DNA of 64,000 nt from Escherichia phage vB_ESM-pEJ01, in sequence record OP114734.1; one strand, written 5' to 3'. Shown here one piece after another: positions 814 to 64,000 of the stretch. The position numbers and the translations under genes were made by a program. The first letter of the stretch is position 1, and every line of letters begins with the position of its first letter. Under the pieces are notes generated by a model that ran no database searches, was not told the origin of the DNA, and saw only the letters and a program-made list of their open reading frames with translations.

Positions 814-1712
814 TAAAAGTCTCCGTAGTTAACCTGAAAACATTCTACACCAATTGAGCGGTACATGTCAACCACTTGATCACGGTCATCTACCGCCAAA
901 ACAACATGATAACGCGGTGCAATTTCAGAGAAGAAAATCTCTTTCTTCACTTCATGATCAGGACGACGATCATTAGTTTCACGTTGAAAGTGATCACTCG
1001 GTTCAATACCCTGTTCACGCAACCATTGCAGAGTATCTTCTTCGCAAACATCCTCACGCCCTGAGCATGTAATGATACGATAACCATTATCACGATACAG
1101 TTTAAGCATTTCGATCACTTGCGGACGCGGTTTATCTTCTTTGACCTTTGTCCAGTCAAACGGATGACGACCGCCCTTATCCGCTAATGTTCCATCAATA
1201 TCAAAGATCACTGCCTTCGGCAGCATGGTATTCGGTTTGTATACTTCTTGACCCATATATTCCTGGGTCAGATAAAATTGGTTACGCAAATGAGAAAGTG
1301 GAATTGCTTTCTCGCCTCGATAGAAATTACGTTTCTTTAGTGTCTCAAATGATTCATTGAACACTTGTTCAGTATACACCGCGTTAAATTCTTTTGCAAG
1401 TTCTTTGTAGAATACACGATGTTTTTCTTTCAGGTTAGTATCAGAGATAATGATACTTAATCCGCGTGATAGAGTCTCACGAGCAATCATTCTCTGAATA
1501 GACTCTACCAGTTTTTCTTTTTCCTTAGTATACTTGTATTTCAAATGTGAGTCAACACCAAACAACATAAGACGAAGATCATCGCGATTCACATTACGAT
1601 AATTACTAAACCGTTTACACGTTTCCATAGCCCATGTAGTTTTACCGGACCCAGAACAACCAACGGTTAAAATCACTTCACATTTCGGCATTATTTCTCC
1701 TTCGGTTTGCAC
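813..1712 (-). CDS. pseT: polynucleotide 5'-kinase / 3'-phosphatase
   Basis: 299 aa; P-loop GCSGSGKTT at N-terminus, HAD motif DIDGTL, C-terminus VECFQVNYGDF matches remembered T4 Pnk end. Confidence 0.9.
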   Translation of the reverse strand: MQTEGEIMPKCEVILTVGCSGSGKTTWAMETCKRFSNYRNVNRDDLRLMLFGVDSHLKYKYTKEKEKLVESIQRMIARETLSRGLSIIISDTNLKEKHRVFYKELAKEFNAVYTEQVFNESFETLKKRNFYRGEKAIPLSHLRNQFYLTQEYMGQEVYKPNTMLPKAVIFDIDGTLADKGGRHPFDWTKVKEDKPRPQVIEMLKLYRDNGYRIITCSGREDVCEEDTLQWLREQGIEPSDHFQRETNDRRPDHEVKKEIFFSEIAPRYHVVLAVDDRDQVVDMYRSIGVECFQVNYGDF

Positions 1713-7634: not shown

Positions 7635-7663
7635 ATTATAGCGGGGATTTCTCCCCGCGTCAA
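7635..7663 (-). promoter_or_regulatory. sigma70-like promoter (TTGACG-17-TATAAT) with hairpin in spacer
   Basis: spacer is the hairpin GCGGGGAGAAATCCCCGC; immediately downstream of nrdA stop. Confidence 0.5.
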
Positions 7664-60339: not shown

Positions 60340-60570
60340 TCACGTTCTAAAGTTTGTTGCAACCCCAGCATCAGGGTAATCAAGTTTATCAAAGTTGGGG
60401 ACCAGCATAAACTCATGATGACGACAAGACAACATTTTTGTTATGTCTGCATCGCTGTATATGCTGTTTTTCATATCCCCCATACTAACTACATATTCTT
60501 CACCGGAATATAGATTGATTAAGGTATACAATTCTAACTCCGGCTGCGTTACTCTGTCAAATGTTAACAT
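60340..60570 (-). CDS. hypothetical small protein
   Basis: 76 aa track ORF immediately downstream of gene 46. Confidence 0.4.
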   Translation of the reverse strand: MLTFDRVTQPELELYTLINLYSGEEYVVSMGDMKNSIYSDADITKMLSCRHHEFMLVPNFDKLDYPDAGVATNFRT

Positions 60571-62239
60571 TCATTTCAGTGAATCGCCCACGTTTAACCA
60601 TCTTGAGATGACGGCTAAAATCATCAGGGTTATGGTCACGATGGCTGATAATATACACGTTATCATCTAACTTGTCAATGATGGAATCAAGTGCTTTTAC
60701 GCCTTGAACGTCCGTAGCCCCATCATAAATTTCGTCGAGTACCAACAAAGAAATATTAGTACCAGATACTTTACCAGCAACATCACGCCATGTAAAGAGC
60801 ATCGCAAGGTCAATACGTGCCTTTTCGCCTTGACTGAACGATGTATACGAAAACGATTCACGCCCCCGTGATTTGATTGTTTCGTTAAACTCTTCATCTA
60901 GCGTAAAGATATAATCCGCTTCCATGATATCAAGATAATACGCAATCCGATCATTGAAATATGGAATATATTTCTTGACGATAGACGCCTTAACACCGGA
61001 ATCCTTCAACATTTCTGTTACAAATCCACGGTGATATTTTTCAAGAACTAGCTTTGATTTTTCATTAGTAATCTCTACCAGTTCGTGTTCCAGTTTAGCA
61101 AGTTCTTCGGAATTGTCAACCCTTTCTTTTTGTAATTCCTGAATTGCTTTCTGGATCTGTTTAGCCCGACCTACAGATGCCGTTAAATTCGCTCTCTGTG
61201 ACTCTATAGCGCGTTTAATTTCCAAGACCTTAGTTTGTGCTGTCTGGAAAGAATTGGCTTTCTCTGCGTATTCTACGCGTTTCTCGTCAATCAGAGACAG
61301 TTTATGTTCCGCTTGTGCTTTTTGTTCGCGTACAGCCTGATCATTACCCTGAATGATCGGTTGTGTGCACGTAGGACAGATCCCGCCTTTCTCATGCATA
61401 TGAATAACACGGTCAAAGTTCTGGATCTGCGCACCAATCTGTGCGATAGCCGTATTAATTTTAGCCAATGCCGCGCTAGGATCTTCCGGCATAACAACAG
61501 CCAATAGCTCATCGGTCAAGCGCGTTTCTTCGGCTTTAAACGCTTTAGCTGATTCTACTTCTTTCTCGTACATATTCTGCAAACGCTGTAGATTCTCGGC
61601 ACTCGCCTTGCTAGCGTCTTCTATGTACTTTTTATGAGTGTTGATTTGTTGCTGAACGTGATTAGCTTTCATTTCCTGCATTTGGATATTCTGGGTAATC
61701 TCGCGCACATACGCTTTATTCAGTTTATCCATTTCGCCTAGCGTAGCAATATCAAGCAAATCCTCAACCAGTTTACGGCGACCCGCTGCCGGAAGACTCA
61801 TAAACGGAACATAACCAGCAGTACCTAAAACAACGATCTGTTTAAAGCTGGCTAGGTTCATGCCTATGATACCTTCAAAATATTCCTGAAAGTCTTTGGT
61901 GCTTGCGCTCTCGTCGATCTTTTGACCGTCGCGATGCACTTCGAATACTTCCGGTTTTTGACCACGTTTGATATAAAACTCTTTCCCGTCCAGTTCAAAC
62001 CAGACTTCGACTAACAGTTTCTTTTTGTTGACGCTGTTAATCAATTGGCCTTTCTTGATACTACGAAACGGTTTACCGAACAACACAAAGCAAAGCGCCT
62101 CGATCATTGTTGATTTACCAGCACCGTTAACACCAGTGATTAGTGTCTTTTTGAATCCGTCTAGCTGAATCTCAACAGGTTCAGCACCCACGCTCATTAT
62201 ATTTTGATAGCGCAAGGTTTTAAAATTTAACTTTGCCAT
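60557..62239 (-). CDS. 46: recombination endonuclease ATPase subunit gp46 (Rad50/SbcC-like)
   Basis: 560 aa from ATG at 62239 (the track ORF starts at an upstream TTG); Walker A GVNGAGKST, zinc hook CPTC, C-terminal EEFNETIKSRGRESFSYTSFSQGEKARIDLA and LVLDE match remembered T4 gp46. Confidence 0.9.
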   Translation of the reverse strand: MAKLNFKTLRYQNIMSVGAEPVEIQLDGFKKTLITGVNGAGKSTMIEALCFVLFGKPFRSIKKGQLINSVNKKKLLVEVWFELDGKEFYIKRGQKPEVFEVHRDGQKIDESASTKDFQEYFEGIIGMNLASFKQIVVLGTAGYVPFMSLPAAGRRKLVEDLLDIATLGEMDKLNKAYVREITQNIQMQEMKANHVQQQINTHKKYIEDASKASAENLQRLQNMYEKEVESAKAFKAEETRLTDELLAVVMPEDPSAALAKINTAIAQIGAQIQNFDRVIHMHEKGGICPTCTQPIIQGNDQAVREQKAQAEHKLSLIDEKRVEYAEKANSFQTAQTKVLEIKRAIESQRANLTASVGRAKQIQKAIQELQKERVDNSEELAKLEHELVEITNEKSKLVLEKYHRGFVTEMLKDSGVKASIVKKYIPYFNDRIAYYLDIMEADYIFTLDEEFNETIKSRGRESFSYTSFSQGEKARIDLAMLFTWRDVAGKVSGTNISLLVLDEIYDGATDVQGVKALDSIIDKLDDNVYIISHRDHNPDDFSRHLKMVKRGRFTEMNVNI

Positions 62240-62483
62240 TAATCCACTCCGCAATCACACATTCCATAATATTAAATGCTAACACATCTTCATCAATATT
62301 GTAAACACTTGCCGCCTTCACTTTAACTAATGTGTCTCTGCGATCTGGCAACATGATCACATAATCCAGTGTCGCAGGATCATATGTCATAAAGGGATCA
62401 ACATAAATCCCTTTATTCAATGCCAGATATTCGCGAAGACCTTCTATAACCCTGTGTCTAAGGTAGGTCATCGATAGAATCAT
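62220..62483 (-). CDS. hypothetical protein
   Basis: 87 aa track ORF; 20 nt overlap with gene 46 start. Confidence 0.4.
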   Translation of the reverse strand: MILSMTYLRHRVIEGLREYLALNKGIYVDPFMTYDPATLDYVIMLPDRRDTLVKVKAASVYNIDEDVLAFNIMECVIAEWINGKVKF

Positions 62484-63076
62484 TTTAGTTTATGTTCCTC
62501 TAAAAATTCTTCAATTTCACCTTGCAGGTCTTCCGCTTGTTGTTCCAGAATATCGCGAAATTCACCTACAGTCAAGCGATAATCACACTTCACCAGTCGA
62601 TGTGGGAGAATATACCCTTTATACATCGTCTCTGACGCTTCCAGGAATACCCCACTATGCATGACAGAGATCCAACCTGTTAGCGTCAATGGAGTATTCG
62701 GAAAATAATACTTGCTGGATTGTTTCCACTGGACGAAAGCACCATATACAATCGGATTATATTCACCAACCACACTCTTAATAATGGATTCTACTTTGTC
62801 TTTTACAAAGTCGCCAATGCCCATAGTCACCATCAACTCTTGTGGGTGAATCACTTTAAGGTAACGACGGTAGCCGTCATCATACCACAGCTTAACCACT
62901 GGATGGCCCCACATTTTAGCAATACGCGCTTTCAGATAACCATAGATCGGATTCTTGTAATATGATTGTTTTATTGTGTATGCGTGCACCAATTCAATAA
63001 AATATTCCATTGCTATCGAATCAGGATCAGCCGCGACCATAGTCGTATTCATAATATGTTCCTCGTTCAATTTCAT
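62480..63076 (-). CDS. hypothetical protein
   Basis: 198 aa track ORF; the 5' end overlaps the upstream ORF so the true start is probably an internal Met. Confidence 0.4.
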   Translation of the reverse strand: MKLNEEHIMNTTMVAADPDSIAMEYFIELVHAYTIKQSYYKNPIYGYLKARIAKMWGHPVVKLWYDDGYRRYLKVIHPQELMVTMGIGDFVKDKVESIIKSVVGEYNPIVYGAFVQWKQSSKYYFPNTPLTLTGWISVMHSGVFLEASETMYKGYILPHRLVKCDYRLTVGEFRDILEQQAEDLQGEIEEFLEEHKLK

Positions 63077-63347
63077 ATTGTTTCAGGTCTTCTAAAAGTT
63101 CATCCACTGCTTGTTTCAGCACATGACGCAGCGTAAAGTAATAGCTTTCATCAAATTCTATTTCCGCGCGAGGAATAGAGCGAAACTTACACTTAACAGT
63201 AGTATCGGTGAGTCGCTTTTCGACCATCATCCGAACTTCTTCATGCTCTTTGGAATACCATACATCAACGGAGATTCCCTTACGGCGAGCGAACATAGGC
63301 AACGCTGCATTAAATTCCATTACTTTTTGTGTAAGTGTTTTCATCAT
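63027..63347 (-). CDS. hypothetical protein
   Basis: 106 aa track ORF. Confidence 0.4.
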   Translation of the reverse strand: MMKTLTQKVMEFNAALPMFARRKGISVDVWYSKEHEEVRMMVEKRLTDTTVKCKFRSIPRAEIEFDESYYFTLRHVLKQAVDELLEDLKQYEIERGTYYEYDYGRG

Positions 63348-63604
63348 ACAGACCCCATAGATCCACGCGCAATAACATTCTGGGTAATATCAGCAACCTT
63401 ACGGGATACGATGTTTGTTAGCCCCTCTTTGGTGATATTTTCACGATCAAATGGGATTTCGTCATGAGTCCACAAACCATAGTTAGACCGAAATGATAGC
63501 ATATACTGACCATCTCGCACAACCTCAAATACATGGATCTTAGTGAATTTCGATAAACCTTCGTTGATTTCTTTCAGTGCATTAGTAATCATAACAACCT
63601 CCAA
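63344..63604 (-). CDS. hypothetical protein
   Basis: 86 aa track ORF; promoter 63618..63646 upstream. Confidence 0.4.
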   Translation of the reverse strand: MEVVMITNALKEINEGLSKFTKIHVFEVVRDGQYMLSFRSNYGLWTHDEIPFDRENITKEGLTNIVSRKVADITQNVIARGSMGSV

Positions 63605-63617
63605 TCAATTTTTAGAG

Positions 63618-63646
63618 AGTATAACGGGGATTTCTCCCCGCGTCAA
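63618..63646 (-). promoter_or_regulatory. sigma70-like promoter (TTGACG-17-TATACT) with hairpin in spacer
   Basis: spacer hairpin CGGGGAGAAATCCCCG, same family as 7641..7658. Confidence 0.45.
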
Positions 63647-64000
63647 CTAACTTTTTGCGTTATTTACTTCGGCTAAAAGTTCATCAGAAATACGCTTGAC
63701 CGCCGCAAGTTCTTCCGGTTCTAGGTTTTGTTCTTCCAGATATTCATAGACCATCTGAATAGTGCTTTTAACTTCAATAACACCTGTTTCCTGTGATGCG
63801 CTACTCTCCAGTTTATGGACCACCTTTAGCTTGTGTACAACGGCCTCTAACGCGCTTTCTAACTTAGTTAACCCATTATCAGCGACCGTTGCGATAAGAC
63901 GCACACTAAGCCCTTTAAAGCGTTCGACATCGATTTTATCGTCTGACGGGTAAGTGATACGCACATGATAAGTTTTGTCATTCTGAATAAACTCTTTTTT
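63647..64000 (-). CDS. 47: recombination endonuclease nuclease subunit gp47 (Mre11/SbcD-like), 3' part only
   Basis: reading frame is open to the window edge; ...YHVRITYPSDDKIDVERFKGLSVRLIATVADNGLTKLESALEAVVHKLKVV matches the remembered C-terminal region of T4 gp47; 5' end lies beyond position 64000. Confidence 0.75.
   Translation of the reverse strand, partial: KKEFIQNDKTYHVRITYPSDDKIDVERFKGLSVRLIATVADNGLTKLESALEAVVHKLKVVHKLESSASQETGVIEVKSTIQMVYEYLEEQNLEPEELAAVKRISDELLAEVNNAKS

Follow-up and report, generated by a model that had tools for sequence, protein, structure and literature searches.

The window analysed here, a 64,000-nt stretch of Escherichia phage vB_ESM-pEJ01 (sequence record OP114734.1), is approximately 98% identical to phages JSE and Phi1, of the genus Krischvirus, and 97–98.5% identical to Krischvirus genomes overall. 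Near its end, on the minus strand, the 3' end of gene 47 is separated from gene 46 by a block of approximately 1.39 kb containing four ORFs, and no more, which we designate A to D (Table 1). All four were found where an earlier note on this DNA had placed them, with the lengths it gave (86, 106, 198 and 87 aa), and gene 47 is, as it had also stated, Mre11-like and cut by the window edge. The gene 47 fragment matched PHROG 100 (SbcD-like; E 1e-16), terminates in a TAG codon at 63649..63647, and corresponds to the annotated gene 47 of Phi1, RB49 and JSE at 96–97% nucleotide identity. With starts chosen from Shine-Dalgarno sites and from the annotation in relatives, the true products of A, B, C and D are probably of 82, 105, 190 and 87 aa, respectively.

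Table 1. Coordinates of the features found between genes 47 and 46, with maximal frames and probable gene extents.
Feature	Position	Strand	Length	Remarks
Gene 47, 3' part (Mre11/SbcD-like recombination nuclease subunit)	63647..64000	-		Truncated at window edge
Promoter-hairpin element (PeSL cassette)	63618..63646	-		Promoter scan and RNA fold
ORF A Shine-Dalgarno site, GGAGG	63598..63602	-		5 nt upstream of ATG at 63592
ORF A, maximal frame	63344..63604	-	86 aa	
ORF A, probable extent	63344..63592	-	82 aa	Phi1 ORF038; PHROG 15867
ORF B, maximal frame	63027..63347	-	106 aa	
ORF B, probable extent	63027..63344	-	105 aa	Phi1 ORF037; PHROG 15856
ORF C, maximal frame	62480..63076	-	198 aa	
ORF C, probable extent	62480..63052	-	190 aa	Phi1 ORF036; PHROG 16328
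ORF D, frame	62220..62483	-	87 aa	
ORF D, probable extent	62220..62483	-	87 aa	Phi1 ORF035; PHROG 14972
Gene 46 (Rad50/SbcC-like subunit)	60557..62239 (alternative start 62254)	-	560 aa	Annotation in relatives

The ORFs are tightly packed. The stop codon of A overlaps the start of B (ATGATGA), C starts within the 3' end of B with an overlap of 26 nt, the stop of C and the start of D share the sequence ATGA, and the 3' end of D and the start of gene 46 have 20 nt in common, gene 46 being the final member of a translationally overlapping chain A-B-C-D-46. The Shine-Dalgarno site of A, read off the sequence, is kept across relatives. A–D can be taken as real protein-coding genes because they are intact in the 11 Krischvirus genomes compared, despite nucleotide divergence of up to 20%, because their dN/dS values over these genomes lie between 0.05 and 0.34 (A, 0.17; B, 0.17; C, 0.34/0.05; D, 0.12), and because Shine-Dalgarno sites and overlapping stop and start codons are visible in the sequence. 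They were found in 58 of 58 Krischvirus records, annotated as hypothetical proteins (Phi1 ORF035–038).

The block has, as had been proposed, a promoter of its own ending at 63618. It is of the sigma-70 type and matches the consensus at 10 of 12 positions, with a -35 box TTGACG (63646..63641), a 17-nt spacer and a -10 box TATACT (63623..63618). The -35 box lies directly 3' of the gene 47 stop codon, and ORF A, with its GGAGG and ATG, comes next. A 10/12 match is not significant by itself (20 sites in the scan, with 10.7 expected); the promoter is nonetheless credible because it occupies the sole intergenic gap of the block, does not vary among the 11 Krischvirus genomes and persists in two divergent relatives, is marked as a promoter in the annotation of phage GEC-3S, and has a copy identical at 27 of 29 positions elsewhere in the window (7663..7635), where none is expected by chance. 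The spacer is filled by a hairpin, (G)CGGGGA-GAAA-UCCCCG(U), at 63641..63624, with a stem of seven pairs (five G-C, one A-U and one G-U) and a GAAA loop, which was found in both the minimum-free-energy and the centroid folds (z = -2.56). The same arrangement occurs in the metagenomic lineage L014, where the promoter reads TTGACA-CGGGGGATAGTTCCCCC-TATAAT, with perfect hexamers and 17-nt spacing, and the stem is maintained with different bases. Further consensus promoters with hairpins occur on the same strand of the window. Searches for the late-promoter motif TATAAATA, and of the block against Rfam, returned nothing meaningful.

Promoter-early stem-loop (PeSL) ORFan cassettes have been described from RB49, phi1 and other T4-type phages (Arbiol et al. 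2010, PMC2839356; Comeau et al. 2014, PMC4122927), and in RB49 and phi1 they typically head orphan genes. Promoter and terminator activity has been demonstrated for PeSL193/192, 206/205 and 211/210 only, in a study in which g46 served as a control 'not bordered by PeSLs' (PMC2839356). By its sequence features, the element at 63646..63618 is a member of this published class.

Genes A–D have a narrow distribution, occurring in Krischvirus and in two close metagenomic lineages only (L014 and L016). Protein searches, both exhaustive and word-indexed, and scans of contigs revealed no lineages beyond these three, and contigs from IMG/VR, metagenomes and GTDB genomes, scanned for remoter relatives of B and C, gave Krischvirus only; the sequences searched thus gave no sign of a host origin or of a wider family. 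A gp46 homologue is present in 2,463 phage records (tblastn), as compared with 58 for A–D, and across the phages that encode gp46 and gp47 the four genes do not accompany them. What the two distant relatives both recognisably share with the Krischvirus block is B and C, at 35–50% identity as compared with 81–88% for gp46 and gp47; homologues of B show 46–50% identity in the two lineages, and in L014 the values are 50% for B and 35% for C versus 88% for gp46 and 81% for gp47. In L016, C is represented by two ORFs, of 86 and 99 aa, divided at its domain boundary. The ORF at the position of A has no detectable similarity to ORF A in either L014 or L016. D is conserved within Krischvirus and has a counterpart with 24% identity in L016; L014 is without it, and a second PeSL-like element stands in its place.

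Within Krischvirus, nucleotide diversity reaches 0.07–0.16 over positions 63640..62790, as compared with approximately 0.00–0.06 (mostly 0.01–0.05) in the flanks. This island starts at the PeSL, takes in A and B, and extends through the N-terminal half of C. Its allele classes are up to 20% apart, versus at most 4% for gene 46, which has a dN/dS of 0.03; there are two classes for ORF A, differing at approximately 18% of nucleotides, and six for the N-terminal domain of C, and the classes of A, B and the C N-domain combine incongruently among genomes. Recombination as a feature specific to the island was considered and dropped, with Hudson-Kaplan Rm values of 11–22 per kb in all segments and similar values in the flanks. 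The island is distinguished by the depth of its alleles, not by its recombination rate.

The products of A–D appear to be soluble and mildly acidic, and B yielded a confident structural model. AF2 predicts for it an alpha-beta3-alpha fold (pLDDT 84.9, pTM 0.74), that is, a helix, a three-stranded antiparallel sheet and a long helix; the protein is mildly acidic (pI 6.1), and its invariant tail, YEYDYGRG, spans the start of ORF C. Foldseek retrieved no significant structural match for B (best PDB E 0.06–0.2, TMq 0.29–0.41; TM <= 0.43). The weak top matches were a PUR repeat, a dsRBD and HPF, a sequence search gave the Whirly-like MRP1 at E 0.8, and the best BFVD matches were uncharacterised phage proteins (E >= 1.3e-3). 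The order of secondary structure elements predicted for B is like that of dsRBD, PUR repeat/Whirly-like and HPF proteins, which are alpha-beta-beta-beta-alpha nucleic-acid-binding modules, although all these matches are non-significant and B is mildly acidic. In ORF C, the N-terminal half (approximately residues 1–87) is hypervariable and the C-terminal half nearly invariant, the latter having an acidic tail and the motif G(V/I)FLEAS(E/S)T(M/T)Y(K/R)G(Y/F)ILP; the AF2 model of C, from an alignment of five sequences, was unusable (pLDDT 42). A 2,538-aa repeat protein, P0008, with 13 stretches matched to C, was set aside as an artefact of repeats or of composition. The profile and structure searches that the earlier note had proposed placed the four proteins in PHROG families, and gave neither a Pfam or PADLOC domain nor a significant structural match for B. 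Comparisons with Pfam, NCBIfam, PADLOC and PDB sequences yielded no meaningful match, the sole PADLOC match, of D to a homing-endonuclease model (E 0.04, 11.5 bits), being at chance level. We had suspected tandem paralogy because BLASTP gave a weak match between B and D (E 0.02), but the idea that A, B, the two halves of C, and D are copies of one helix-hairpin-helix unit was abandoned, with hhalign probabilities below 5% for every pair in a comparison of low power, given the shallow profiles.

The 47–46 interval contained from zero to four mutually unrelated ORFs in the eight other T4-type phages sampled, and none at all in Proteus phage PM2. This variation across genera argues against a conserved Mre11/Rad50 partner. 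Phage T4 has two ORFs in this slot, 46.1 (DUF5487) and 46.2, in approximately 0.45 kb. They share with A–D the slot, the orientation, the small size and the overlaps of starts and stops with their neighbours, and differ from the Krischvirus block in number and extent (two ORFs in approximately 0.45 kb versus four in approximately 1.39 kb) and in that T4 has no promoter between 47 and 46.2, where the Krischvirus block has a promoter and a hairpin. None of A–D matched DUF5487 in Pfam at E <= 1, BLASTP against T4 46.1 and 46.2 gave only E > 3, and BLASTP against the ORFs that seven other T4-type phages, including MY742 and 92A1, have in this slot detected no similarity. A search of the literature on the roles of 46.1 and 46.2, and on the early genes of Krischvirus, brought up nothing specific.

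Could A–D nevertheless be highly diverged and duplicated orthologues of T4 46.1 and 46.2, so that nothing has been replaced? They occupy the same position, D and T4 46.2 have the same length (87 aa), by eye all of them look like small alpha/beta proteins, and the weak BLASTP similarities of B to D and of A to B (the latter at E 0.16) would fit a duplication. We consider this very unlikely, as A–D belong to separate PHROGs and lack any match to DUF5487 or to the slot ORFs; hhalign gave probabilities below 1% against T4 46.1 and 46.2 and below 5% within the block (A, B, both halves of C, and D), although with shallow profiles (Neff 1.2–1.8) and hence low power. In contrast, T4 46.1 and 46.2 readily matched their true homologues in Enterobacter phage MY742 (E 1e-12 and 1e-6). 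The outcome that the earlier note had named as decisive against it, T4-type 46.1/46.2 orthologues in all relatives, was therefore not what we observed: no similarity was detected, and A–D extend to Krischvirus and two lineages. A further reading takes the ORFs for artefacts of annotation, or for filler without function, in a long 47–46 spacer. The want of known domains and the poor model of C might suggest as much, but this reading is effectively refuted by the intactness of the ORFs, by dN/dS values well below 1, by the Shine-Dalgarno sites and conserved overlaps, by the retention of B and C in distant relatives, and by the confident fold of B.

The earlier note had reasoned that, since 46 and 47 form one functional complex, the genes between them are candidates for accessory or regulatory function. 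This reasoning was not supported by the comparison of the interval in related phages, in which other phages with the same nuclease have unrelated content or none. In its strongest form, the proposal is that some or all of A–D are lineage-specific factors of the gp46/gp47 Mre11/Rad50-like nuclease, acting for instance in tuning resection or sparing phage DNA, the best candidates being the B-C pair or D, whose frame runs into gene 46. It draws on co-transcription and translational overlap with gene 46, on strong purifying selection on D and the C-terminal domain of C, on fixation of the block, and on the weak resemblance of B to nucleic-acid-binding alpha/beta modules. We regard it as unlikely, given that L014 has neither D nor a recognisable A and yet keeps gp46 and gp47, that dN/dS of A, B and the C N-domain is 5–10 times that of gp46/47, that the resemblances of B are all non-significant, and that the PeSL stands between the block and gene 47. 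Still, fixation in 58/58 genomes and conservation of D and the C-terminal domain of C like that of core genes fit a lineage-specific job better than free cargo. A related model, which we hold to be quite unlikely, would make B and C a lineage-specific pair in which B binds nucleic acid and the two together modulate gp46/gp47 or counter host defence, the variable N-domain of C and ORF A being arms-race surfaces; C would there join its hypervariable N-domain to a C-domain that does not vary and ends in an acidic tail, and the defence concerned, if the model were true, would be one acting on recombination or DNA-end intermediates.

We therefore favour, with moderate confidence, the view that the block is a PeSL-headed ORFan cassette in a small plastic 47–46 slot of RB49/Phi1/JSE-type Krischvirus phages. 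Judged by sequence comparison, the slot content behaves as replaceable cargo headed by a PeSL, and not as a conserved nuclease partner, since it varies among phages and since gp46 and gp47 persist in L014 without D or a recognisable A. Host RNA polymerase would fire the promoter right after infection and the hairpin would attenuate transcripts arriving from gene 47, so that early gene 46 mRNA would start at the PeSL promoter and pass through A–D, which would be dispensable accessory early proteins. The cassette may be swapped among phages by homologous recombination, anchored at one side in the conserved PeSL and at the other in the conserved stretch from the C-terminal half of C through gene 46. 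The early-promoter context, narrow distribution and allele diversity suggest that A–D probably act on variable host components, in host takeover or counter-defence, and not as Mre11/Rad50-like nuclease subunits; B and C probably act together, since their 26-nt overlap and co-occurrence are conserved.

There is thus nothing unusual about the locus. It is a variable-gene slot of the kind that T4-type phages have, annotated before, with a link to the nuclease not supported, and the 47–46 interval of these phages is a recurrent mini-hotspot for orphan genes inside a conserved replication/recombination module. Early transcription of gene 46 in Krischvirus probably must begin at the PeSL and cross four orphan genes. 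The allele structure (two classes of A, six of the C N-domain, and the B-C core) may aid the search for host-range and counter-defence determinants in therapeutic Krischvirus phages, and A–D would be reasonable, if not outstanding, targets for deletion; beyond such bookkeeping, the block matters little.

The element resembles the PeSLs of Arbiol et al. (2010) in the following features: sigma-70-like hexamers with 16–18 nt spacing, a stable, GC-rich stem-loop that overlaps the promoter or lies inside it, a position after the upstream stop codon and before a Shine-Dalgarno site and a gene of unknown function, recurrence in the genome, here through the copy at 7663..7635, and a place bordering sequence that relatives have replaced, gained or lost. 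The present locus departs from the typical PeSL in lying inside a conserved replication/recombination module and not in a hyperplastic region. The Krischvirus block is not flanked by a second PeSL, whereas L014 has one, and it is fixed in 58/58 genomes and does not form an insertion/deletion polymorphism. Finally, unlike a PeSL with a single ORFan, the element described here heads four overlapping genes together with the essential core gene 46.

Genes 47 and 46, which encode the Mre11/SbcD-like and Rad50/SbcC-like subunits of a recombination nuclease, are separated by the four ORFs described in the earlier note (86, 106, 198 and 87 aa), named A to D here and recovered with the same sizes in the ORF listing. 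Likely start codons were chosen by the Shine-Dalgarno sites present and by how relatives are annotated. Each gene overlaps the next: ATGATGA is common to the stop of ORF A and the start of ORF B, the overlap of B with C is 26 nt long, C and D have ATGA in common, and D overlaps gene 46 by 20 nt. The sole intergenic gap of the block is 54 nt, from the gene 47 stop to the ORF A start. Downstream of gene 46 comes a small ORF with weak homology to Gp45.2 (Pfam PF17470, E 0.01; PHROG 1045, E 7e-19); it overlaps the 3' end of gene 46 and is preceded by consensus-like promoters within that gene. In RB49 (locus L010, 1350..1904), the HNH homing-endonuclease gene RB49p040 lies directly upstream of gene 47, a position that would be just past the window edge here; the gene is missing from Phi1 and from the other Krischvirus loci compared.

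Features in and around the 47-46 interval and related elements
Feature	Position	Strand	Maximum length (aa)	Likely product	Remark
Gene 47, 3' end	63647..64000	minus			truncated by window edge; PHROG 100, SbcD-like, E 1e-16
Promoter of the block	63646..63618	minus			TTGACG-17-TATACT
Hairpin	63641..63624				CGGGGA-GAAA-UCCCCG
ORF A	63344..63604	minus	86	82 aa, ATG at 63592	GGAGG at 63602..63598
ORF B	63027..63347	minus	106	105 aa	
ORF C	62480..63076	minus	198	190 aa, ATG at 63052	
ORF D	62220..62483	minus	87	87 aa	
Gene 46	60557..62239	minus			next after ORF D
Promoters within gene 46	60678..60650, 60560..60531				consensus-like
Gp45.2-like ORF	60340..60570	minus			
Second promoter-hairpin copy	7663..7635	minus			TTGACGCGGGGAGAAATCCCCGCTATAAT

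The earlier note also gave the block its own promoter, which is borne out: the site is marked as a promoter in the GEC-3S record, and the element, including a GC-rich hairpin that takes up the entire promoter spacer (fold z = -2.56), is without variation in 11/11 Krischvirus genomes. Judged by its sequence, it is a PeSL (promoter-early stem-loop) of the type described for RB49 and phi1. PeSLs consist of a strong sigma-70-like promoter and a stem-loop, mostly between -35 and -10, that serves as a terminator or attenuator, and their usual place is immediately upstream of an ORFan; in that study g46 served as a control 'not bordered by PeSLs' (Arbiol et al. 2010, PMC2839356). The counterpart in the divergent metagenomic contig L014 is a perfect consensus promoter, TTGACA-CGGGGGATAGTTCCCCC-TATAAT, whose hairpin has changed bases and a preserved stem. 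The second copy in the window is 27/29 identical, with 0 expected by chance; it lies on the same strand, 56 kb from the PeSL between gene 47 and ORF A, with a Shine-Dalgarno site and an ATG behind it, and on the PeSL model homologous exchange could take place between the two. The late promoter motif TATAAATA does not occur across the four-ORF block, and an Rfam search of the block returned no family. Across the window, all 24 matches to TTGAC[AGT]-N16-18-TA[TAC]A[ACT]T are on the minus strand, which fits a long leftward early-gene region; several (about 17588, 39979 and 56829) have GC-rich hairpins and are PeSL-like.

Identity of the region to Krischvirus phages, among them JSE, Phi1, KFS-EC and RB49, is 97-98.5%, and in Phi1 ORFs A to D are ORF038, ORF037, ORF036 and ORF035, each a 'hypothetical protein'. 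The products of ORFs A and C match proteins of phage vB_ESM-pEJ01 with full identity. Searched by tblastn, a fusion of A, B, C and D matched 58 phage records. Each is classed as Krischvirus-type, either from its name or from its identity in nucleotides and gp46, and each has the four genes (coverage at least 99% among the matches listed); these 58 are also the very records whose gp46 is >95% identical, and no other phage record appeared at E <= 0.01. ORFs A to D are genes: they are intact in all 11 aligned genomes, picked to span the genus, and their mean dN/dS was 0.17 for A, 0.17 for B, 0.34 for C residues 1-83, 0.05 for C residues 84-190 and 0.12 for D, with 0.03 for gp46 and gp47. Each matches end to end a small PHROG without known function (15867, 15856, 16328 and 14972, respectively), and Pfam, NCBIfam, PADLOC and PDB sequence searches gave nothing meaningful. 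Under 90% protein clustering, A and B fall in one cluster. Identical or near-identical B, C and D proteins are filed under Escherichia coli assemblies (e.g. H1Y97_004329, KZ558_000584 and MWV29_001526; 95-170 kb contigs) and one such protein under Bacillus atrophaeus (WP_239815975.1), probably reflecting phage contigs that contaminate bacterial assemblies.

Beyond the genus, a word-indexed protein search with ORF C found only proteins at least 82% identical, and an exhaustive profile search of 1.84 billion representatives added two real relatives, P0007 and P0009, both on short metagenomic contigs in the same gene context. P0008, a 2,538-aa surface-repeat protein with E 5e-17 to the ORF C profile, was rejected as a repeat-summing artefact of 13 weak repeated stretches; its motif ...GY(K/E)FVKWSD... 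resembles YGAFVQWKQSS of ORF C. The profile of ORF B reached the same lineages and no others, and scans of IMG/VR, JGI metagenomes and GTDB genomes gave no additional relatives. Contig L014 has, in order, gp47 (81% identity), a PeSL, an 84-aa ORF with undetectable similarity to ORF A, B (50%), C (35%), a second PeSL-like element and gp46 (88%), without ORF D. Contig L016 has gp47, a PeSL, a 94-aa ORF, B (46%), C as ORFs of 86 and 99 aa, and a D homologue (24% identity). By these alignments, B and C are what both contigs recognisably retain of the block, at a divergence far above that of the nuclease genes on either side. The second element of L014 (1795..1880; also in L015) stands where ORF D would be, immediately before gene 46; it comprises TTGACA-17-TAATCT and an ATCCCC...GGGGAT stem that overlaps the -10 box. 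The unit A'-B-C (A' being the ORF in the position of ORF A) thus has a PeSL on each side there, an arrangement proposed to yield mini-circles. In L016 the two overlapping C ORFs (852..1413) part where the variable N-domain meets the conserved C-domain; either a true gene fission or a frameshift in the assembly could account for this.

Within Krischvirus, nucleotide diversity is 0.07-0.16 over 63640..62790, from the PeSL to mid ORF C, and roughly 0.00-0.06, mostly 0.01-0.05, in the flanks. At a 5% nucleotide-distance threshold, the alleles of ORF A make two classes that differ by up to 19.5%, ORF B has one main allele and divergent ones in Brandy and AV108 (the protein of AV108 looks chimeric between the two types), and the hypervariable N-terminal half of ORF C splits into six classes that differ by up to 21%; gene 46 is one cluster with divergence of at most 4%. 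Allele classes are combined incongruently among genomes, and because synonymous divergence is also 2- to 3-fold higher, the pattern indicates old alleles under reshuffling, beyond mere relaxed constraint. Island-specific recombination was not found, the Hudson-Kaplan minimum number of recombination events being 11-22 per kb everywhere. The island ends at the start of the invariant C-terminal domain of ORF C, roughly the split point in L016, indicating that ORF C has two domains.

AF2 gave no usable model for ORF C (pLDDT 42) and, from five sequences, a confident one for ORF B (pLDDT 84.9, pTM 0.74), with a helix (4-13), three strands (24-31, 36-44 and 50-58), a short helix (59-62), a long helix (68-94) and a disordered tail. 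Foldseek found no significant match to this model in the PDB (best E 0.06-0.2, TM <= 0.43) and, in BFVD, uncharacterised phage proteins only (best E 1.3e-3). Among the top non-significant PDB matches were PUR repeats, Dicer-like dsRBDs and the ribosome hibernation factor HPF, a predicted likeness to nucleic-acid-binding proteins that is a lead, not a result. The stretch encoding the invariant ORF B tail, YEYDYGRG, overlaps the ribosome-binding site and start codon of ORF C, which suggests that selection acts on coupled B-C expression.

The block is best explained as a cassette of early ORFans headed by a PeSL, of an ordinary kind, that occupies a plastic slot. The putative PeSL would drive early expression of A to D, its hairpin may attenuate gene 47 transcripts, and early transcription of gene 46 would depend on read-through of the four genes, which may serve a dispensable function in host interaction or counter-defence. 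The finding is real but ordinary: dozens of published genomes already list A to D as hypothetical proteins, and the class of regulatory motif is published. From its position between 46 and 47, the earlier note made the block a candidate for an accessory or regulatory function. Partnership with the gp46/gp47 nuclease is an unlikely possibility for ORF D or the B-C pair; comparative evidence disfavours it, as the slot content is unrelated or absent in other T4-type phages. The interval holds 46.2 (87 aa) and 46.1 (68 aa, DUF5487) in T4, homologues of both in Enterobacter phage MY742, two ORFs with no relation to the T4 pair in Serratia phage 92A1, an 85-aa ORF and a 203-aa phosphoesterase in Acinetobacter phage AM101, one ORF each in Vibrio phage VH7D, Prochlorococcus phage P-HM1 and Klebsiella phage iPHaGe-KPN-11i, and no ORF in Proteus phage PM2. 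The AM101 gene (locus L017, 1893..2504; Lazarusvirus), metallophosphoesterase-like and adjoining the Mre11-like gp47, is a different, functionally suggestive filling. Orthology of A to D to 46.1/46.2-type genes, which the earlier note had raised, was not detected: they show no BLASTP similarity to the slot ORFs of T4 and the other sampled phages, and profile-profile comparison gave hhalign probabilities <5%. The slot is therefore kept as a place and its content is not, which is the chief reason for doubting that the block has a conserved function with the Mre11/Rad50-like complex; among the sampled phages, Krischvirus has the largest filling.
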